Below, piece by piece: positions 1,477-13,615 of a stretch of DNA of 19,283 bases (positions within the stretch are counted from its first letter, which is position 1; each line of letters begins with the position of its first letter). A program made the position numbers and the translations under genes. The stretch is from an uncultured Clostridia bacterium. GTDB taxonomy: Bacteria > Bacillota > Clostridia > TANB77 > SIG350. The DNA is taken from positions 1-19,283 of the forward strand of contig CALYAQ010000081.1 in assembly GCA_944393615.1 (NCBI GenBank), written 5' to 3'. The notes under the pieces are model-generated. The model was not told where the DNA came from. It saw only the letters and a program-made list of their open reading frames with translations, and did no database searches.

Positions 1477-4400
1477 TTATACCTTTCTCATAATATTATA
1501 TTTGCAATTACTATCTTTTGAATTAAATTTACAAACACTACTATATGAACAATATTTGCACCCATACATATTTTTGTTTTTCCAATAAGGTAGAACAGAT
1601 ATCTTACCGTTCAATATTTGAGTTGATATTCTTTTTAGTAAATTTTTCGCCTCTTTTTGTAATTTTATAAATTCATCTAACGATATAGCATTATTACCTT
1701 TTGCATTTCCTTCTTTATCTAATTTAACATTAACCATATTAGAACTTTCTTGTATATAATTATCCATATGGCTTATTAAAGTTTTATCATTTAATATTAA
1801 ACCATCTAATCTCATTTGTTCAACTATTTTATTTTCAATTTCCTCTTTTGAAACATCTCCAGAAGTTTTAATAATAGGATTATCAATTTTAAAATAGAAA
1901 ACCCCTCCTGGTACTATTCCATCTTCTTTTTGCGTAACAGCATCCAAATATGTTATTAACTGAATATTTAGCCCATTATATATATCTGAAACGTCTATGC
2001 TCTTATTTGAAGATTTATAGTCAATTATTCTTACATATCTTCCGTCATTTGTATCTGCAATATCTATTCTGTCAATTTTACCTCTTAGTTCAACCCTTTT
2101 TCCATTTTCTAATTCCACTTCTATTGCGTGATATTGCCCTTTTTCTCCAAATTCAACTTCTGTTCCTATTGGTTTAAAACTGCTATTTTTTATTTGAAGT
2201 ACTAAAATCCAAATGGCTTTTTGCAAGGTTTTTTTAAGCCTAATTTTAAGAATGTTATACTCTTTAGATTGTTTTATCATTTCAATATCAATTTTTTCAA
2301 ACATAAAATTAATTATTTTTTCTGATACTTGATTACAAGTATCAATATCCAAATTCTTTATATCAATACTATTATCAATCATATATTTAAAAAACTCATC
2401 TAACACTTGATGATTGAAATTTCCAATGTCCAATGTCCTTATTGTATACATTTCTTTTTCCTTTATTTTTAGCACATATTTAAGATAAAAACTATATGGG
2501 CATCTAACATATTCTTCAATTCTAGATATAGAAGTTTTGAGTTCATTTGTATAAAGTTTAGAAATATTTTCTTCACTCAAATTAATTTCCATACTATTTT
2601 TAAAATCACATATTGCTATATATTTATTATACAGTTCTATATCATTATTTTTATACCATTGTAGTAACTCAAGATTATTATCAAAAAGATTCTCAAAGCT
2701 CACATTTGGCAAATACTCTTTTTGATTTAAAACATATTGTTCATCAACAGGTATTTCAATAATATCAAACATCTTTTTTATTTTATTAATTAAAAATGAC
2801 GGTCTATAACTTGTACCATTTAGGTCATTAAAAATATATGAAAAAACCACTTTTTCTGTACACATAGTTATAGATTTATATATGCTAAATTCATCTAGCA
2901 ATATCTTTTCATTTGTATTTTTCGCAAGTTGAACCTCATTTTGTTTTAAGTATTTTCTATCATTATCAGTAAGTAACCCTTCTGTTGGATAAGTAATAGG
3001 AAATTTATCATTTTGTGTTCCTATAAAATATAGCGATTTTATACTATTGGTTCTTGTCCTTTCAATATCTCCTATTATTACACAATCTTTATATAATGGT
3101 ATATATGCCTTTTGAGTATTTGTAATACCAACTTCTAACAACTTCTTAAACTCCTGAATGTCAACTTCTTTTTGACCAACACTTAATATTAATTGTTCAA
3201 ATACATCTGTATAATAATTCCATATATCTATATATTCATTTTCTAATTCTATCATTTGTTGTTTTCTAAAATTTTCAATTTTATCTTTTATCTTTCTTTC
3301 TATTCCATTATTAGATAAAAATGTATACATAGTAGATACTATATCTTTTACACATTTGCATTTTAGAATTGTATTTCTAAACTCTATTAAAGGTACTATA
3401 ACTGTTTTTCTAATATTATTAAGCAATTCTAACCTTTGTTTTTCTTCTTCTGTTTTATTATCATAATTGAAATCATTATGCCATTTATATCCATGTATTC
3501 CCCACTTAACACAGTAATTTTCTAAATTATATATATCATCAATATCAATGTCTAAAAAACCTGTTTTTAAATAAGAAAAAACACTTTGATAACTAAAGTT
3601 ATCAATAACAATATCAATTAGTGAGAATATCAACACAGATATTTGATTGTTGCTAATGTCGGTTTTGCAATCTAAAAAATATGGTATATTATATTTTTTA
3701 AAAATAGCCCATATAGCATCTGAATATCTTTCTAAATCTCTAGTTATAACCACAATATCATTATATTTATATCCTTTTTTTATATCTTTTATAACTTGGT
3801 TAGCTAAATTCTCAATTTCTGTATAAGTGTTAGTACATGAATATATATTAACACTATCACATTGACCCTTATACTTAATATATGGGTATTTGAATAAGTT
3901 TTCTTGCAAGTGTATAATCTCGCTTTTTTGTGTTGCTTGTTCATATTTATTTAATAATTGTATTTGTTCAAAATCTATATTATTTTCTTTACAAAGAGTA
4001 ATAAACTTTTCATATTCTACTTTGTTTTGATTATATATATCAAGTGAATTGCTAGAAGGCTTTATATCATCTATACAAAACGTAATATTTACATTATTTT
4101 TTTTAACCAACTTTATAATTATTTCATACTCCTGTTTAGTAAAACCATAAAACTCGTCTATATATATATCACAATTTGATAATATATCACTATTATCTAA
4201 ATATTGTAAAAGTATTTCTAATTCATTTGTATAATTTTTCCCATTTGCTTGTACCATATTTATGTATTGTTCATATATATTATTAAGGTCAGTTATTTTA
4301 TCTTTCAACCTAACATCTTCAATTTGTAATGATGACAAAGCATTATTTGTAACTCCATATCTATTAAATTCAGAAAAAACATCTAATATATTATCAATGT

Positions 4401-4749
4401 TTCCTTTATTAGCACTATTAAACATTTTGAACTTACCATTATTCAAAATGTTATATATTATTATTTTTTTACCTACATCACTAATATTTTGTATATCTAA
4501 CCCTAATTCATTAAATACATAATATGCCATTCTTTTTAAGGTAAGAACTTCAATATTAAAAAGTCCGCACTTTTTTAAATATTTCGTTAACTTTTCTTCT
4601 GTACTTAGACTAAATTGTTCAGGCACAATTAAATATGATTTAATATTATTCATAATATTAAAATCATATTTCTCTTTTATCATGTTATATATATATGTAG
4701 TCTTTCCACATCTACTTTTTCCATAAATAATTTTTAACATTATTTTCAC
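1477..4749 (-). CDS. addB: ATP-dependent helicase/deoxyribonuclease subunit B (AddB/RexB)
   Basis: 1090-aa ORF. It has an N-terminal Walker A motif (GKSRCGKT) and a C-terminal nuclease and Fe-S module with CPYSFYLKY ... CKYCSYSSVC (the Cys pattern typical of AddB). SD AGGTGA lies upstream of the ATG, and the stop is TAA. Confidence 0.9.
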   Translation of the reverse strand: MKIMLKIIYGKSRCGKTTYIYNMIKEKYDFNIMNNIKSYLIVPEQFSLSTEEKLTKYLKKCGLFNIEVLTLKRMAYYVFNELGLDIQNISDVGKKIIIYNILNNGKFKMFNSANKGNIDNILDVFSEFNRYGVTNNALSSLQIEDVRLKDKITDLNNIYEQYINMVQANGKNYTNELEILLQYLDNSDILSNCDIYIDEFYGFTKQEYEIIIKLVKKNNVNITFCIDDIKPSSNSLDIYNQNKVEYEKFITLCKENNIDFEQIQLLNKYEQATQKSEIIHLQENLFKYPYIKYKGQCDSVNIYSCTNTYTEIENLANQVIKDIKKGYKYNDIVVITRDLERYSDAIWAIFKKYNIPYFLDCKTDISNNQISVLIFSLIDIVIDNFSYQSVFSYLKTGFLDIDIDDIYNLENYCVKWGIHGYKWHNDFNYDNKTEEEKQRLELLNNIRKTVIVPLIEFRNTILKCKCVKDIVSTMYTFLSNNGIERKIKDKIENFRKQQMIELENEYIDIWNYYTDVFEQLILSVGQKEVDIQEFKKLLEVGITNTQKAYIPLYKDCVIIGDIERTRTNSIKSLYFIGTQNDKFPITYPTEGLLTDNDRKYLKQNEVQLAKNTNEKILLDEFSIYKSITMCTEKVVFSYIFNDLNGTSYRPSFLINKIKKMFDIIEIPVDEQYVLNQKEYLPNVSFENLFDNNLELLQWYKNNDIELYNKYIAICDFKNSMEINLSEENISKLYTNELKTSISRIEEYVRCPYSFYLKYVLKIKEKEMYTIRTLDIGNFNHQVLDEFFKYMIDNSIDIKNLDIDTCNQVSEKIINFMFEKIDIEMIKQSKEYNILKIRLKKTLQKAIWILVLQIKNSSFKPIGTEVEFGEKGQYHAIEVELENGKRVELRGKIDRIDIADTNDGRYVRIIDYKSSNKSIDVSDIYNGLNIQLITYLDAVTQKEDGIVPGGVFYFKIDNPIIKTSGDVSKEEIENKIVEQMRLDGLILNDKTLISHMDNYIQESSNMVNVKLDKEGNAKGNNAISLDEFIKLQKEAKNLLKRISTQILNGKISVLPYWKNKNMYGCKYCSYSSVCKFNSKDSNCKYNIMRKV

Positions 4750-4786
4750 CTAATATATATATACCATACTTTAAACAAAAAAACAA

Positions 4787-4816
4787 TTGACACAAGTAAA
4801 ATTTATATGGTATACT
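4787..4816 (+). promoter_or_regulatory. Sigma-A-type promoter of cassette 1 (TTGACA-18-TGgTATACT)
   Basis: TTGACA is at 4787-4792, TG at 4808-4809 and TATACT at 4811-4816. The ATG at 4824 lies 7 nt after the -10, and there is no SD. Confidence 0.65.
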
Positions 4817-4830
4817 AATTTGTATGACAA
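4802..4830 (-). promoter_or_regulatory. Candidate addB promoter (TTGTCA-17-TATAAA) overlapping the divergent cassette-1 promoter
   Basis: Reading the minus strand, TTGTCA is at 4830-4825, followed by a 17-nt spacer and TATAAA at 4807-4802. The -35 is the reverse complement of the cassette-1 start codon region ATGACAA. Confidence 0.35.
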
Positions 4831-5213
4831 GCATTGACTTACAAGTCGAAGAACACGAATTGTTATTTGACAACTCCGAAAAAACAAAGTTTTTCTTGAA
4901 AAAACTTTCAAAACTAATAAATTGTTTTTCAGAAACTGATTTTTCTAAATCAATTATCACTGCAATTAAAAACTACATAAAAGCTAGAGGTATAACCGAA
5001 AATTTAGCTTTAGAAATTTTAATTACTAGTTCATCAATTTATAATGCAATAATGATTGCACAAGATTGTAAAGAAGATAATGTTATAGGTAATGCAAAAA
5101 TGTGTGTACTTTCAAAAGGAAGTTTCTCAGTTATACTCAATTTTATTGAATTTGAAACCAATTGTGTATGTTGCAACAAAAGGATTAAAGTATATATTCT
5201 TTTTGCTGAATAG
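4824..5213 (+). CDS. Hypothetical small cytoplasmic protein, cassette 1 (129 aa)
   Basis: A 129-codon open frame in very AT-rich DNA, bracketed by its own promoter and a weak hairpin. I see no TM segment or signal peptide. The stop is TAG. Confidence 0.7.
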   Translation: MTSIDLQVEEHELLFDNSEKTKFFLKKLSKLINCFSETDFSKSIITAIKNYIKARGITENLALEILITSSSIYNAIMIAQDCKEDNVIGNAKMCVLSKGSFSVILNFIEFETNCVCCNKRIKVYILFAE

Positions 5214-5218
5214 TCTTT

Positions 5219-5245
5219 AAAAAGGCTATATGCTCTTTTTTCTTT
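5219..5245 (+). terminator. Weak candidate terminator after cassette 1
   Basis: The stem AAAAAGGC/GC(t)CTTTTT has one bulge and a 5-nt loop and is followed by a T-rich run. The stem is AT-rich and therefore weak. Confidence 0.35.
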
Positions 5246-5254
5246 CTAACACAT

Positions 5255-5284
5255 TTGACTTTTGTATACATAATATGGTATAAT
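5255..5284 (+). promoter_or_regulatory. Sigma-A-type promoter of cassette 2 (TTGACT-18-TGgTATAAT)
   Basis: TTGACT is at 5255-5260, TG at 5276-5277 and TATAAT at 5279-5284. Unlike the other cassettes, the first long-ORF ATG (5317) is about 26 nt past the predicted +1. Confidence 0.6.
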
Positions 5285-5316
5285 GAACTGATAAAAAAAT
5301 TATGTAATGTATTACT

Positions 5317-5700
5317 ATGTATAATACATGGGAATTTAACATGGATAAAGTTACAACTACAAAAACAATTTTTCTTCTTAATAAAGAAGCTACAATTAGT
5401 ATAGAAAGTACAAAAGGTTATATCCTTAAAATTACAGTTAAATTTAATGATAATCCTTTAGTAGAATTTGCAAAGTACAGTGATGACAGTTGTTCTATAA
5501 CTTCAAAAGATAATACATCTTCTAAGTTATACAACAGATTATGGCTTGATTGTTCTGACGGGAAAGATGTTTTTGCTTTAGAAAATTGCGAAGAAGAAGT
5601 TTTAACCTTCCACCACATTTCTAAAGCACCTATAGATGTATTAGAAAAATTAAAATACATGAAAGAACTAAAAAGAGCTATTGCAAGAACAATTTTTTAA
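5317..5700 (+). CDS. Hypothetical small protein, cassette 2 (127 aa, or 119 aa if translation starts at the ATG at 5341)
   Basis: The frame is open from 5317 to 5700 and the stop is TAA. There is no clear SD, only a weak GGGA 7 nt before the alternative ATG at 5341. A strong terminator follows. Confidence 0.65.
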   Translation: MYNTWEFNMDKVTTTKTIFLLNKEATISIESTKGYILKITVKFNDNPLVEFAKYSDDSCSITSKDNTSSKLYNRLWLDCSDGKDVFALENCEEEVLTFHHISKAPIDVLEKLKYMKELKRAIARTIF

Positions 5701-5723
5701 AAACACAGACCTCTGTGTTTTTC
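5699..5723 (+). terminator. Intrinsic terminator after cassette 2
   Basis: The stem AAACACAG/CTGTGTTT has loop ACCT and is followed by TTC. It abuts the next -35 element. Confidence 0.7.
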
Positions 5724-5752
5724 TTGCTTTTTCTTCTAAATTATGATAAAAT
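5724..5752 (+). promoter_or_regulatory. Sigma-A-type promoter of cassette 3 (TTGCTT-17-TGaTAAAAT)
   Basis: TTGCTT is at 5724-5729, TG at 5744-5745 and TAAAAT at 5747-5752. The ATG at 5759 lies 6 nt after the -10, and there is no SD. Confidence 0.65.
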
Positions 5753-5758
5753 ATATGT

Positions 5759-6199
5759 ATGTTTAACCATTTAGTTAGTCAAAACATCTCTAATTTAGAT
5801 GATGCTACAACCGAAACGCAAGTAATTCTTGAAAAAGTTTTTAAGAATATTTCTTCGTATATTGATGAATCGAACCTTGTTGTAAATTCAATCAAAAAAA
5901 TTTACTTTTCTAGAAAAGCAACAGCGTTAGACATCTTATCTAGTCAGTACAATATTACACTTAGTAATACTTATGATTTAACATATATTGTTACGAATTC
6001 GTCAACTGCACTTGAGCAATACGAAAAACTTATTATGCAAAGTACAAACTCTGAGATATATTCAACTAATCTAGATTATCTTAAATTTGAAACAGAAAAT
6101 AATAGCATTCCTTTTATTTTCTACATTATTCCTAACAACGTGAAAGGTTATTCGAATAACAATTGGAGACTTGTACTAATTATAGAAATACCAAAATAA
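5759..6199 (+). CDS. Hypothetical small cytoplasmic protein, cassette 3 (146 aa)
   Basis: The frame is open from 5759 to 6199 and the stop is TAA. The stop codon sits inside the 5' arm of the terminator stem. Confidence 0.7.
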   Translation: MFNHLVSQNISNLDDATTETQVILEKVFKNISSYIDESNLVVNSIKKIYFSRKATALDILSSQYNITLSNTYDLTYIVTNSSTALEQYEKLIMQSTNSEIYSTNLDYLKFETENNSIPFIFYIIPNNVKGYSNNNWRLVLIIEIPK

Positions 6200-6222
6200 T
6201 TATCTATTTTGGTATTTTTATT
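6191..6222 (+). terminator. Intrinsic terminator after cassette 3
   Basis: The stem CCAAAATA/TATTTTGG has a 6-nt loop and is followed by TATTTTTATT. Confidence 0.6.
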
Positions 6223-6223
6223 C

Positions 6224-6252
6224 TTGACCAACGATTAAAAATATGATAAATT
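6224..6252 (+). promoter_or_regulatory. Sigma-A-type promoter of cassette 4 (TTGACC-17-TGaTAAATT)
   Basis: TTGACC is at 6224-6229, TG at 6244-6245 and TAAATT at 6247-6252. The ATG at 6259 lies 6 nt after the -10, and there is no SD. Confidence 0.65.
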
Positions 6253-6258
6253 ATATAC

Positions 6259-6702
6259 ATGTCAGAAGTCTATCTACAATTTGACCATCCTAAATTGGTT
6301 AATGGTTCAGCAAATGAAAAAGAAATTATTAACAACTTTTTCAACTGTGCTTACTCTGTAGCAATGCTACAAGATTGTAGGCAAAAAGCTTTTGAAGCAT
6401 ATATGGAGGCAACTTCCGTTTGTATTGAGTACTTAGAATTAGAAGAGGATTATTCACTATCATTGCGTTTGTATGATAACTGTGATGAAGCTGTTGCATG
6501 GTTTTCAAGTTTAGATTACCCAGAAGATGACAATATCTATTCTGCAACAACAGCAATCTATACACATAATCATGACTTAAGATGCGACTCTTTACTTATG
6601 TTTTTAGGTATTGCTTGCAACAAGGAAAAAATAGATTATATGAAAGAAGAGCAACTTAGAATTGACTGGAATGCATATTGTTGCGTTATTACAGAGTTCT
6701 AA
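6259..6702 (+). CDS. Hypothetical small, strongly acidic, Cys-rich protein, cassette 4 (147 aa)
   Basis: The frame is open from 6259 to 6702. My manual count gives about 27 D/E against 10 K/R, plus 8 Cys. I see no TM segment or signal peptide. Confidence 0.7.
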   Translation: MSEVYLQFDHPKLVNGSANEKEIINNFFNCAYSVAMLQDCRQKAFEAYMEATSVCIEYLELEEDYSLSLRLYDNCDEAVAWFSSLDYPEDDNIYSATTAIYTHNHDLRCDSLLMFLGIACNKEKIDYMKEEQLRIDWNAYCCVITEF

Positions 6703-6711
6703 CAAATACAT

Positions 6712-6746
6712 ATAAACATGATAGTTTATCTTGTTTATATTTTTTC
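6712..6746 (+). terminator. Intrinsic terminator after cassette 4
   Basis: An extended AT-rich hairpin ATAAACA-t-GATA gtt TATC-t-TGTTTAT is followed by ATTTTTT. It abuts the next -35 element. Confidence 0.55.
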
Positions 6747-6776
6747 TTGACATTGCTATACATAATGTTGTATAAT
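6747..6776 (+). promoter_or_regulatory. Sigma-A-type promoter of cassette 5 (TTGACA-18-TATAAT)
   Basis: TTGACA is at 6747-6752 and TATAAT at 6771-6776, with TG immediately upstream of the -10. The ATG at 6783 lies 6 nt after the -10, and there is no SD. Confidence 0.7.
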
Positions 6777-6782
6777 ATAATT

Positions 6783-7457
6783 ATGTCAAATGAAACTATT
6801 AATGTAAATTCAACAAATGCTGATTTATTAAATTCTGAAGATTTTGAAAACAATATTAAAGTATATTCCAAAAATGGAAAAACAAATCCTATTGTTCCAA
6901 CTTATTCAGCAACTTTATCTAATGCTATTGTACTTCGAGCAATAGATATGTTTAGTTATAAAATTTGTCTAAAATTCTATAATGGTATTTATGAATTTTC
7001 TTATGAAAACAACAAACTTTCAAATGATGTTATAGATAGTGTTATAGAGCATTTCAACAAACTAGGAATTAGTGTTAAAAAAGAAAGAAAAACTTTAAAA
7101 AAAGGTATCATTTTCAAAAAAGAATACGTTAAGAATTTTTTAACTTTTTCATATACTTTAGAAAATGAAGCTATTATAGACAATATCTTCTTTACAATGT
7201 GTTCTGAAAAATCGTTTGCCACAACTAGAGAATCACTTGAAAAAATAATTTCAAGTGAGGTATTAAAAGGTAATAAAGCTTTTTGGATTGACAGCTATGA
7301 ACTTTGTATTAGCAGTGTTAATTCTGAATATTTAGGCTATACTGCGGTCAAAGAAATGATATTCTCTAAGCTCTTTTATGATTTTAGAAAAGCAGGTTTT
7401 GTAATTTCTAGCAAACGTAGCAGATACTGTATGTATTATCACATCACACTACCATAA
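6783..7457 (+). CDS. Hypothetical cytoplasmic protein, cassette 5 (224 aa)
   Basis: The ORF track starts this frame at 6678, but that extension covers the preceding terminator and this cassette's promoter. The internal ATG at 6783 (MSNETINV...) sits at the predicted +1. The stop is TAA. Confidence 0.7.
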   Translation: MSNETINVNSTNADLLNSEDFENNIKVYSKNGKTNPIVPTYSATLSNAIVLRAIDMFSYKICLKFYNGIYEFSYENNKLSNDVIDSVIEHFNKLGISVKKERKTLKKGIIFKKEYVKNFLTFSYTLENEAIIDNIFFTMCSEKSFATTRESLEKIISSEVLKGNKAFWIDSYELCISSVNSEYLGYTAVKEMIFSKLFYDFRKAGFVISSKRSRYCMYYHITLP

Positions 7458-7490
7458 CCCCCCTATTTTGGGGTTTTATTTTTTTTGTTT
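7456..7490 (+). terminator. Intrinsic terminator after cassette 5
   Basis: The GC stem AACCCC/GGGGTT is followed by a long T run (TTTTATTTTTTTTGTTTTTT). Confidence 0.75.
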
Positions 7491-7499
7491 TTTCTGCAT

Positions 7500-7528
7500 T
7501 TGACATAACATATTATTTATGATATACT
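7500..7528 (+). promoter_or_regulatory. Sigma-A-type promoter of cassette 6 (TTGACA-17-TGaTATACT)
   Basis: TTGACA is at 7500-7505, TG at 7520-7521 and TATACT at 7523-7528. The ATG at 7536 lies 7 nt after the -10, and there is no SD. Confidence 0.7.
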
Positions 7529-7535
7529 TTTATTC

Positions 7536-7979
7536 ATGCTAATCTTTAATTTAGAATTAGAAGCTCTTGATTTAGAGCACGACAGCGTAGAAACCACAAA
7601 TTATCTTACCACATTATTTAGCACAGTTTTCGAAAGCAAGTATGATAAACTTGATAAAAAAGTGCTTGGTTGGTTTGATAATTATGCTGATGCCTTTTTT
7701 AACGAGTCTGGTTTACCAGGTTACTATAACCTACACATTAAACGTACAACAGGTTCGTACAAAGATGTAGAACAATACATTAACGAATTACCACTTGAAT
7801 TTAATCATATTTTTATTGGAAAAATTTATGAAACTCCAATTGAATTTTATGATAATGGTAAGCCAACAGAACTTGGCAAAGTTACATTTGTTGGAATTGC
7901 CGAAAAAGCTATAGAAAGCGAAAAATCTACAGACATCGTACAATGTATTTTATATATGATTGTACAAATGAAAGAGTGA
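7536..7979 (+). CDS. Hypothetical small acidic cytoplasmic protein, cassette 6 (147 aa)
   Basis: The frame is open from 7536 to 7979. My manual count gives about 25 D/E against 13 K/R. The stop is TGA. Confidence 0.7.
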   Translation: MLIFNLELEALDLEHDSVETTNYLTTLFSTVFESKYDKLDKKVLGWFDNYADAFFNESGLPGYYNLHIKRTTGSYKDVEQYINELPLEFNHIFIGKIYETPIEFYDNGKPTELGKVTFVGIAEKAIESEKSTDIVQCILYMIVQMKE

Positions 7980-8008
7980 TACTAATTTTAAATTAGCTCA
8001 CTCTTTTA
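7971..8008. terminator. Bidirectional hairpin terminator between convergent genes
   Basis: The outer stem AAAGAGTGA/TCACTCTTT encloses the inner palindrome CTAATTT/AAATTAG. It is flanked by A and T runs and sits between the cassette-6 stop and the stop of the minus-strand gene at 8009. Confidence 0.65.
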
Positions 8009-8800
8009 TTATATTGTATATTCATAAAAAACAAATCTATTATCTATTTTCTTCATTTTAACCTTTAACATCTTTCCAGTCAAATAATTATTATCAATTT
8101 CTACACTTTCTAAATATTGTAATACTTCTGTATATTCTTTTTGCTCATATAGCTTCAATACATTAATTTCCAACAATGTAGCTATATATATATCATTTTG
8201 TTTATCATAACTTATATTTTGCACCTTATATTTGCTATTATCATATATATAATTGTTTTTTGGTACCACAAAACCATTTAAGTTAGAAATATAGTAGTTA
8301 GAATATGAATTTTGATTTAACTTATTTGTATTAAATAATTGTTTATATGTAGATATAAACCTTTCCTTATCTATATACATATATGTATCTTTGTAGTCTT
8401 CAAAATATACATAACCCAAATCTCTATATACATCTGGCAATATATTATCTATATATTCGTTATCAACTATTTGAAATTCATTGTTCATTGCATAATACTT
8501 ACATGTAATTAAATATCTCACATTTTCATTAGATAGTTCTTGTCCAATATCAACATTTGACATTAGAAACGAAAACATTTCATTTATTTGTTTTTTCTCA
8601 TTATCATTTATCTGTACTTCTACAACTTGTACCCCTTCATTATATCCACTTTGTATTGGTATTTTCTTTTGAAGATTTAATATTATACATGTAGATACTA
8701 TTATAGTTGTACAGGTAATTAATATACAAAAAAACGGTATGATATAGTTTTTATTAAATTTAAAAACACGTCTATTTCCTCTTCTTCTATTTATTCCCAT
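8009..8800 (-). CDS. Hypothetical membrane-anchored protein (263 aa)
   Basis: The N-terminus is basic (RRRGNRR) and is followed by one hydrophobic helix (IIPFFCILITCTTIIVSTCIILNL). The rest is hydrophilic and Tyr/Asn-rich. The gene starts 5 nt after the folD stop. I recognise no family. Confidence 0.6.
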   Translation of the reverse strand: MGINRRRGNRRVFKFNKNYIIPFFCILITCTTIIVSTCIILNLQKKIPIQSGYNEGVQVVEVQINDNEKKQINEMFSFLMSNVDIGQELSNENVRYLITCKYYAMNNEFQIVDNEYIDNILPDVYRDLGYVYFEDYKDTYMYIDKERFISTYKQLFNTNKLNQNSYSNYYISNLNGFVVPKNNYIYDNSKYKVQNISYDKQNDIYIATLLEINVLKLYEQKEYTEVLQYLESVEIDNNYLTGKMLKVKMKKIDNRFVFYEYTI

Positions 8801-13404: not shown

Positions 13405-13615
13405 AATAATAAAAAACCCATTGGTCGTTAATAGTAATTTAAGAACCTGCCTCACAACAGGTGGGTAATACTCTATTAAATACTCCTGGGTTTCTTACTG
13501 TATTTGATGTAAGCCTACACGCCGTATTTAAACACGAGTTCCCTATAAATAGATGTTGGTTCTAAATATATCTATTTAATATCGTACCAAATGGGTATTG
13601 ATATTTTCATATCGT
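13405..13615 (-). ncRNA. ssrS: Structured rod-like ncRNA, candidate 6S RNA
   Basis: The region has no ORF and a long imperfect closing duplex: 13416-13446 ACCCATTGGTCGTTAATAGTAATTTAAGAACC pairs with 13557-13596 GGTTC...ACCAAATGGGT. Internal pairings are TTAAATAC/GTATTTAA and the apical hairpin CTTAC/GTAAG. The 3' side of the central region has a small hairpin (CCUG uuguGAGG CAGG) next to ACCCAC. On the minus strand the structure is followed by a U run (GGGUUUUUUAUUAUUUUUUU) and preceded by a good promoter. Confidence 0.5.

Follow-up and report, generated by a model that had tools for sequence, protein, structure and literature searches.

A variable islet of six tandem gene units, five of them predicted to be leaderless, beside addB in an uncultured gut Clostridium

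How a gene is expressed when its start codon lies where transcription should begin is a question raised by six small open reading frames (ORFs) that stand head to tail beside addB in the genome of an uncultured Clostridia bacterium (lineage TANB77; SIG350). The cI gene of phage lambda, transcribed from PRM, is a leaderless gene in this sense. The ORFs, here called c1 to c6, are located in a stretch of 19,283 nucleotides (contig CALYAQ010000081.1, assembly GCA_944393615.1), which in its full length is referred to as the window. They span positions 4824-7979 of the plus strand, and each is equipped with a near-consensus sigma-A promoter and a terminator. Together they make up an islet (4750-8008, plus strand), a variable insertion between the start of addB (1477-4741, minus strand; ATG 4741 is the probable true start) on the left and the stop, at position 8009, of a gene for 263 amino acids (g263; 8009-8800, minus strand) on the right. 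The first-pass annotation of this DNA had placed the block between addB and the folD block; the direct neighbour on the right side is g263, which precedes folD. The explanation that we favor, with a probability of roughly 0.7 for the explanation as a whole, is that we are dealing with a lineage-specific variable gene islet of a low-GC gut Clostridium, composed of six insulated monocistronic units that encode real, cytoplasmic, fast-evolving orphan proteins, with leaderless starts in five of the units and an origin by tandem duplication.

The promoters are the most conspicuous feature of the islet. P1 (4787-4816) consists of TTGACA at 4787-4792 and TATACT at 4811-4816 with an 18-nt spacer that ends in TGg; it matches the consensus at 11 of 12 positions in addition to the TGn motif, and is followed by AATTTGT and the ATG of c1 (4824-5213; 129 aa). 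In P2 (5255-5284) we find TTGACT at 5255-5260, a spacer of 18 nt with TGg, and TATAAT at 5279-5284. P3 (5724-5752) is of the extended -10 type with a weak -35, TTGCTT at 5724-5729, which is separated by 17 nt including TGa from TAAAAT at 5747-5752, followed by ATATGT and the ATG of c3 (5759-6199; 146 aa). P4 (6224-6252) combines TTGACC at 6224-6229, 17 nt with TGa, and TAAATT at 6247-6252, after which come ATATAC and the start codon of c4 (6259-6702; 147 aa). The best match in the window, at 12 of 12 positions, is P5 (6747-6776), with TTGACA at 6747-6752, an 18-nt spacer and TATAAT at 6771-6776, followed by ATAATT and c5 (6783-7457; 224 aa), the ATG of which we have corrected to 6783. Finally, P6 (7500-7528) has TTGACA at 7500-7505, 17 nt with TGa, and TATACT at 7523-7528, and leads via TTTATTC into c6 (7536-7979; 147 aa). 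The TG of P5 directly abuts the -10 hexamer and is not a canonical TGn motif, which is present in the other five promoters (c1, c2, c3, c4 and c6); this is the very set named previously, although it had been tallied there as four.

The distance between promoter and start codon is nearly constant. The previously noted spacings of 7, 6, 6, 6 and 7 nt for c1, c3, c4, c5 and c6 are the numbers of intervening bases, and the A of the ATG is thus located at +8, +7, +7, +7 and +8, respectively, relative to the final base of the -10 hexamer. With this A taken as +1, the base at -1 is a pyrimidine in each of the five. Likewise, all five have a TANNNT hexamer whose last base is 6-8 nt ahead of the start codon, an AUG start and no Shine-Dalgarno (SD) sequence: GGAG, GAGG and AGGA were not found in the 25 nt upstream of their ATGs, a stretch that is the promoter itself. 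No alternative in-frame start with an SD was seen in these five, where the next methionine codon is situated 36 to about 140 codons downstream. The flanking genes, as had been stated, carry AGGAG, GAGG or GGAGG motifs. The exception within the islet is c2, the ATG of which lies 33 nt (5317) or 57 nt (5341) past the -10 hexamer and is preceded by a weak SD-like GGGAA; the lack of an SD applies to c1, c3, c4, c5 and c6.

Downstream of each ORF there is a hairpin, with a free energy (dG) between -7.8 and -14.3 kcal/mol, and a T-run that reaches up to or into the -35 of the next unit, packed into spacers between successive cassettes of 103, 58, 59, 80 and 78 bp. The terminator-like hairpin and T-run of c1 are at 5190-5242 (-10.2 kcal/mol), those of c3 at 6186-6223 (-11.5 kcal/mol), those of c4 at 6710-6746 (-8.5 kcal/mol) and those of c5 at 7456-7486, whereas the U-tract of the predicted c2 terminator (5699-5736) contains the -35 of c3. 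The hairpin of c6 (7969-8008; -14.3 kcal/mol) is probably bidirectional and common to c6 and the convergent g263. The promoters, hairpins and T-runs that we derived anew thus bear out the proposal that the cassettes are separate promoter-ORF-terminator units.

Do relatives have this segment? The relatives identified with folD are metagenome-assembled genomes of uncultured gut Clostridia, such as Clostridium sp. CAG:245, CAG:273 and CAG:389, and the closest one belongs to SIG350 (L007). A scan of GTDB genomes with folD gave 80 loci, among which the synteny is shared by L007 only, and a GTDB scan with c6 gave no match. In L007, the g263 homologue (42% identity to the window) and addB (39-56% identity in the segments that align) are located on the same strand, 9 bp apart and with no gene between them, which identifies the islet as an insertion that splits an operon. 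A sister species, represented by a 36.7 kb contig (L087), has the same synteny as the window and three cassettes that are c2-like, c4-like and c6-like. In both L089 and L090, addB is followed by a c2-like and a c4-like cassette, and L088 contains at least one cassette, c4-like, which adjoins the g263 homologue and folD. The segment is thus present in four relatives and missing from a fifth, making the junction of addB and g263 a hotspot with zero, two or more, three or six units across species. In the window, c1, c3 and c5 are interspersed among the units that are common to L087 (c2, c4 and c6). The window proteins were also found on metagenome contigs from several samples, all of them 99.7-100% identical and of the same strain.

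The contrast in conservation between the islet and its surroundings is large. Comparison with L087 shows that FolD, UppP, DpaA and Ppa are 85-93% identical and that SpoIIIAH and SpoIIIAG are 80% identical, whereas c2, c4 and c6 retain 29%, 39% and 51% identity, respectively, and c1, c3 and c5 are without counterpart.

The geometry of the promoters has nevertheless been maintained. An alignment of the promoter-start regions of four c4 genes and two c6 genes shows that TTGAC, TG, the T-A--A-T pattern of the -10 hexamer and the ATG are invariant in all six regions: P4 is kept in all four c4 regions and P6 is kept in the c6 orthologue of L087. The spacers vary, and so do the discriminators of 6-7 nt (ATATAC, ATATAT, ATACCT, ATTGTC, TTTATTC and ATGTTC). 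The ATG is located at +7 in all four c4 genes, whereas for c6 it is at +8 in the window and at +7 in L087. Furthermore, the proteins are conserved from the first methionine onward, c4 beginning with MSE-VYLQF-HPKLV-GS and c6 with ML-FNLELEA-DL-H-S-E. An invariant distance from promoter to ATG, variable bases in between and conservation from Met1 are as expected under selection for a transcript that starts at the A of the AUG. The arrangement thus recurs in the orthologues of two cassettes, and together with the geometry and the conserved N-termini it supports the suggestion that these genes are expressed without a leader. We regard leaderless mRNAs for c1, c3, c4, c5 and c6 as a strong prediction, which is the strength at which the original claim can be upheld.

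Cassette c2 (5341-5700; 119 aa from ATG 5341, 127 aa from ATG 5317) is the sole unit with a leader. The start at 5317 that was first assigned to it is not supported by its orthologues, which align from ATG 5341, and 5317 is situated in the loop of a hairpin; judging from the alignment, the true start is most likely ATG 5341. The 5' leader (5291-5340, plus strand) contains an 8-bp hairpin formed by 5307-5314 and 5322-5329, directly after which the SD-like GGGAA occupies 5330-5334. A leader of 50-60 nt with a hairpin immediately 5' of the SD precedes the gene in three species, and the SD is GGGAA (weak) in the window, AGGAA in L087 and AAGGAG in L089. The sequence of the hairpin differs in each species (leaders at 5291-5340 in the window, 8935-8996 in L087 and 4570-4631 in L089; 8 bp, or 7 bp in L087), and the identity of c2 to its orthologues is 29-46%. 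This suggests that the hairpin could be a conserved structural element, serving either as a 5' stabiliser or in translational control.

We next consider whether the six ORFs encode proteins. For a run of 127 codons without a stop, the probability at this base composition (27% GC) is about 1e-5, and in all six cases a codon model derived from the neighbouring housekeeping genes gives positive values in the ORF frame alone. The GC content of the cassettes, both overall and at third codon positions, is host-like. The proteins are mostly acidic with isoelectric points of 4.3-6.7, apart from c5 at 8.7, and no obvious signal peptide or membrane segment was seen in the six proteins on reading. On the minus strand of the islet there are short ORFs only.

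The public gene calls for these families deviate from the starts given here. In the databases, c5 (P0001) has a length of 230 aa, with its start put at an ATG that falls within the c5 promoter. The orthologue of c6 (P0003) is called 2 aa too long, from an ATG that abuts the -10 hexamer (+1 from its last base) and is located upstream of the predicted transcription start site (TSS), and the public call for a c4 orthologue (P0005) is short by 7 aa at the N-terminus. Such mis-starts are a systematic annotation error for genes without a ribosome-binding site. With the starts of three of these genes misplaced, orphan leaderless genes are probably mis-annotated systematically in metagenomes.

The recurrence of the same design in neighbouring units raises the question of whether the leaderless cassettes are paralogs. 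Pairwise BLASTP and hhalign comparisons between the cassette families were not significant. There are, however, weak similarities that fall in register. The sequences of c1 and c3 are colinear over about 100 residues (z = 4.5; 1 of 400 shuffles), and four of the five best hhalign matches among c1/c3, c4 and c6 are exactly in register, with the match of c6 to c3 within 3 residues of it. In an ungapped diagonal test of residues 2-45, the best in-register offset (-1 to +1) ranks first of 109 for c1-c4, c1-c6, c3-c6 and c4-c5 (residues 93-224), whereas the c2 controls are mostly not high-ranking. Likewise, hidden Markov models (HMMs) of the families beat 496-500 of 500 shuffles in several cross-comparisons, for instance when the c4 model is applied to c3 and to c6 of L087, the c6 model to c4 of L089, and the joint c4 and c6 model to c1 and c3; the c4-family model scores c3 above all 500 shuffles. 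The c2 controls, in contrast, behave like their own shuffles, 400-480 of 500 of which score higher. The lengths of c3, c4 and c6 are 146-147 aa, and the models of c4 (of low confidence) and c6 have helices and strands in the same order and at the same positions. Among the promoters, P3 and P4 as well as P2 and P5 share 83-84% of their bases over 25-30 nt. Thus c1, c3, c4 and c6 look like remote paralogs, and c5 may also be one. Judging from these comparisons, we give roughly even odds to an ancient tandem duplication of a leaderless promoter-ORF-terminator unit, the copies of which have since lost nearly all recognizable similarity. Such a history would explain both the recurring geometry and the fact that the unrelated c2 is the only unit with a leader.

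Can the islet be explained in other ways? A skeptic could argue that the hexamers are chance matches in AT-rich DNA and that transcription of the block starts somewhere else, as in polycistronic read-through, with translation by some other SD-independent or internal initiation. AT-rich DNA indeed yields many weak look-alikes, as shown by the 167 sigma-70-like matches of at least 9/12 in the window compared to 166 in shuffled sequences, and P3 and P4 reach only 9-10 of 13. The best matches are distributed differently: in a scan of both strands of the 19 kb window, four of the five highest-scoring promoters are P5, P1, P2 and P6. To the background rate of the spacing, which the first-pass annotation had proposed as a check, we can put a number from 1.27 Mb of DNA from 80 related Clostridia loci, where a promoter of at least 10/13 stands at +7 or +8 before 23 (0.36%) of the 6329 ATGs followed by an open frame of 100 codons or more. 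At this threshold, +7/+8 is hardly more frequent than other distances; at a stricter threshold there is a modest enrichment, to which this window contributes 3 of the 10 cases. In the window and its closest relatives, all cases that score at least 11 are cassette genes, while c3 (score 9) and c4 (score 10) overlap with a few weak non-cassette matches because of the weak -35 of c3 and the weak -10 of c4. Five such starts in a row are therefore non-random, as was claimed, although the similarity in register among c1, c3, c4 and c6 means that they are probably not independent events. A coincidence of hexamers is also hard to reconcile with the maintenance of -35, TGn, -10 and ATG spacing in all six c4 and c6 regions while the intervening bases vary, with a hairpin and T-run after every ORF, and with N-termini that are conserved from Met1 and no internal SD-led start, and we consider it quite improbable. 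We attach even less credence to the idea that the ORFs, or some of them, are not functional protein genes and represent pseudogenes in decay or RNAs that are not translated. The six proteins have no known domains, c1, c3 and c5 occur in one species only, and selection (dN/dS) is measurable neither from the available copies, which are 99.7-100% identical, nor from the orthologues, which are too divergent. Yet DNA of 27% GC would hardly contain ORFs of 119-224 codons by chance (about 1e-5 each), codon usage is frame-specific and host-like, c6 folds confidently with AlphaFold2 (AF2), and the c2, c4 and c6 families are full-length with invariant residues at 29-56% identity.

The variable content of the islet invites a further explanation, namely that a mobile cassette system produced the array or left it behind, be it an integron-like, site-specific array or the morons of a decayed prophage, so that the architecture reflects portability rather than regulation by the host. 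Presence and absence at one fixed junction across species, and the interleaving of the extra units c1, c3 and c5 with those shared with L087, are what such a system would produce, and autonomous units with their own promoter and terminator are the defining layout of morons (PMC3594210). We nevertheless find it unlikely, for several reasons. An integrase or recombinase is missing around the islet, which is flanked by addB and g263 and, over about 8 kb further to the right in the window, by genes annotated with housekeeping and sporulation functions. Neither attC-like repeats nor flanking direct repeats were found, the only similarities being those between promoters, and the cassettes have promoters, which integron cassettes do not. 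There is also no match to phages (c2, c4 and c6) or IMG/VR (c2 and c4) and no significant match to PHROGs (all six), and GC content and codon usage are those of the host. The alternative that deserves most attention, which we still hold to be distinctly less probable than our own explanation, concerns the origin of the design. Unrelated genes may have been recruited independently in the five leaderless units and converged on a promoter placed against the ATG as the easiest way to express a new ORF in an AT-rich genome. No pair of cassettes is conventionally significant in BLASTP or hhalign, c1, c3 and c5 have no homologue anywhere, and short consensus promoters could converge. On the other hand, a weak similarity in register recurs among c1, c3, c4 and c6 and is absent with the c2 control, c3, c4 and c6 are of near-equal length, the order of secondary structure elements is the same in c4 and c6, and the promoters are alike too, at 83-84% identity for P3/P4 and for P2/P5.

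Several observations weigh against the explanation that we favor, that of tandemly duplicated, leaderless units. The -35 hexamer of c3 is weak, with three of six matches, the -10 hexamer of c4 matches at four of six positions only, and the true TSS could deviate by 1-3 nt from the A of the ATG. The predicted 5' ends of the mRNAs are no less structured than internal controls. The signals of paralogy are individually weak, with all hhalign E-values at 0.09-0.27, and the profile test gives no support for c5 (72/500). Furthermore, the AF2 model of c4 is of low confidence, with a predicted local distance difference test score (pLDDT) of 45, for which reason it was not used for a fold search, and no domain, defence-system, phage or fold match backs any function.

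We propose the following scenario for tandem leaderless units at this site. The islet would have entered what was once a common transcription unit of g263 and addB, with its genes on the opposite strand. For c1, c3, c4, c5 and c6, the sigma-A RNA polymerase would bind to a near-consensus and mostly TGn-extended promoter, and the first transcribed base, 7-8 nt beyond the -10 hexamer, would be the A of the ATG, a purine that is preceded by a pyrimidine at -1. The mRNA would then start with 5'-AUG, and a ribosome with fMet-tRNA would bind to the 5'-terminal AUG by the SD-independent, leaderless route. An intrinsic terminator would close each transcript, and its T-run could at the same time provide the following -35 with an A/T-rich upstream region. 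The c2 unit would instead use a leader of about 50 nt with a 5' hairpin and an SD. In this scenario, the leaderless design would most likely have spread by ancient tandem duplication followed by extreme divergence, with later gains and losses of cassettes that differed among species.

The other half of the split operon has also been affected. As read from the sequence, ATG 4741 of addB is preceded on the minus strand by a separate extended -10 (TGgTATATA) and by an AGGTGA SD, back to back with P1. The 74-82 bp between addB and c1 (4742-4823) hold two such back-to-back promoters. In L007, addB starts 9 bp after the upstream gene, and it presumably gained its promoter when the islet split the operon. 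The AddB protein adjoining the islet is 48% identical between the window (1477-4741, minus strand) and L087 (5584-8853), which is unusually fast for a repair nuclease. Other neighbours of the cassettes in the relatives include a partial ORF in L088 (1-118) that ends in ...KGIIKVVGRGKDRKYYIA, a winged-helix-like tail, and precedes the c4-like cassette, and a protein of 465 aa in L090 (2023-3420, minus strand) that takes the place of g263 as the right flank.

What do the proteins do? None of the six proteins had a match below E = 0.005 or above a curated cut-off in Pfam, NCBIfam, PADLOC or PHROGs. The best candidates for c1, phrog_4268 'repressor' (E = 0.006) and dnstrm_HI1420 (E = 0.11), were too weak to be used. 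Homologue searches with c1 and c5 recovered only the query itself and c3 is without homologue, whereas c6 has one orthologue cluster (P0003; 51% identical) and c4 has three (P0005, P0006 and P0007; 39-56% identical) among 1.84 billion representatives. A match of c4 to P0008, a repeat protein of 3291 aa (E = 1e-17), was judged spurious since it sums a short motif (e.g., 'SYTLDVEMFDNLDDAIAWIDYNNDGQFD') over 10 repeats. No homologue was found by tblastn with c2, c4 and c6 against 50,697 phage records, nor by scans of IMG/VR with the c2 and c4 families; two JGI metagenome scans with the g263 and c4 families gave no relatives, sequence searches of the PDB gave noise only, and Rfam had no match within the islet.

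The AF2 model of c6 is an alpha/beta fold with a pLDDT of 85 and a predicted template modelling (TM) score, pTM, of 0.81, for which Foldseek searches of the PDB and BFVD returned nothing at E < 0.01. Matches of this model to SAS1/RelQ, TdT and CapRel were recurrent, and a nucleotidyltransferase or small alarmone synthetase was therefore considered, but was discounted at E >= 0.05 and TM <= 0.37; there is no Pfam RelA_SpoT match, and a DxxGxR or ExQxRT-type motif was not seen on reading. The c4 family, with 8 cysteines in an acidic, cytoplasmic protein of 147 aa, shares an invariant D-W-N-x-Y-C-C motif at the C-terminus, and a C-x-C-C motif is present at the C-terminus of c1 too.

The rapid divergence, restriction to one clade and variation in presence at a fixed hotspot lead us to the tentative guess that the islet proteins have a conflict-related or accessory role, such as immunity, anti-phage or anti-toxin functions, which we regard as rather unlikely to be right. 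It would be still more speculative, and in our view improbable, to see in the islet a dedicated platform for SD-independent expression, i.e., a hotspot where a fast-diversifying family of conflict proteins of the immunity, anti-phage or inhibitor type is duplicated, swapped and expressed as leaderless monocistrons beside the fast-evolving AddB. If this were true, the proteins would still be made when SD-dependent initiation is compromised, as by ribosome-targeting toxins, phage takeover, sporulation or the stationary phase. The functional module decoupled from SD-dependent initiation that was proposed earlier has no direct support, and c2, in the middle of the array, uses a leader and an SD.

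Two further features of the window can be mentioned here. A full-length gene for the 6S/SsrS RNA is located at 13411-13600 on the minus strand (Rfam RF00013; 65.6 bits, E = 3e-11), between ppa and a gene on the plus strand for 236 aa, and just downstream of it there is a strong promoter match, TTGACA, 17 nt and TAAAAT (13398-13370, minus strand).

How unusual would leaderless genes be in this group of bacteria? For low-GC Firmicutes, computational predictions include leaderless genes in which a TG-extended -10 precedes the start by about 12 nt (PMC3160421), and Zheng et al. (2011) predicted such genes in Firmicutes mainly in the Lactobacillales and Mycoplasma, with none in the Clostridia. In Streptococcus pneumoniae D39, 9% of the operons are leaderless (about 70, including pbp2A), one of which was found to be efficiently translated (PMC6212727). 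Leaderless transcripts are rare in Clostridium phytofermentans (PMC5171806), and an RNA-seq study of Clostridium acetobutylicum claimed that there are many (PMC4533764). The rarity in Firmicutes that was asserted in the first-pass annotation is thus overstated in view of S. pneumoniae, but agrees with the mapped C. phytofermentans (PMC5171806). Among the related loci, promoters that match at 12 of 12 positions with an ATG at +7/+8 also precede conserved housekeeping genes, namely those for an RluD-like pseudouridine synthase in three species (L055 at 2438, L057 at 7288 and L062 at 11432, all on the minus strand) and for a DinB-like DNA polymerase IV (L066 at 4203, plus strand), which indicates that the clade seems to use the leaderless route sporadically.

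If the 5' ends bear out the predictions, the islet would be a compact natural case of leaderless expression in the Clostridia, a class in which it is thought to be rare. It comes with internal controls, in that five predicted leaderless units and one SD-led unit stand side by side with equally strong promoters and have orthologues in sister species, and could serve as a test bed for the choice of TSS and for translation from a 5'-terminal AUG in low-GC Gram-positive bacteria. Furthermore, several new clade-restricted protein families have been defined at the hotspot beside addB.

Comparison with known systems helps to place the islet. Its five predicted leaderless units resemble the leaderless genes represented by lambda cI, those of D39 and those predicted by Zheng et al. 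(2011) in having a TANNNT hexamer with its first T about 12-13 nt before the ATG, a TGn motif, an AUG start and no SD, and like the leaderless genes of S. pneumoniae, each would be the first or only gene of its transcript (PMC6212727). They differ from these in that five stand head to tail within 3.2 kb, all of them orphans in a variable islet and each with its own terminator, and in that the host belongs to the Clostridia. With phage morons the islet shares units with their own promoter and factor-independent terminator, located between conserved genes and variable in presence (PMC3594210). Unlike morons, the six units stand in tandem outside a prophage, flanked by addB and by g263 and folD and with no phage genes in the vicinity, have a host-like composition and have no viral homologues in searches with c2, c4 and c6 or, for PHROGs, with all six.

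Integron arrays likewise consist of tandem single-ORF units in the same orientation, variable in number and at a fixed site. In contrast to these, the islet has short terminator hairpins and similar promoters but no attC-like repeat family, there is no intI, attI or integrase-sized ORF on either side in the window, and its cassettes come with individual promoters, while those of integrons are as a rule promoterless and are transcribed from a common Pc. By analogy only, we also liken the islet to the orphan immunity arrays of gut bacteria, such as the acquired interbacterial defence clusters of the Bacteroidales. Such arrays similarly contain tandem, small, diverse and fast-evolving genes with a content that varies among lineages (PMC12247911). 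The islet differs from such arrays in that its proteins belong to no known immunity or defence family, no toxin, secretion system or recombinase is nearby, and the host is Gram-positive. The leaderless mRNA is thus an expression mode of a known kind and involves no new mechanism; what is new is the arrangement, in which a conserved hotspot holds tandem, predicted leaderless monocistrons for clade-restricted orphan proteins, with an embedded SD-led unit as a natural control.

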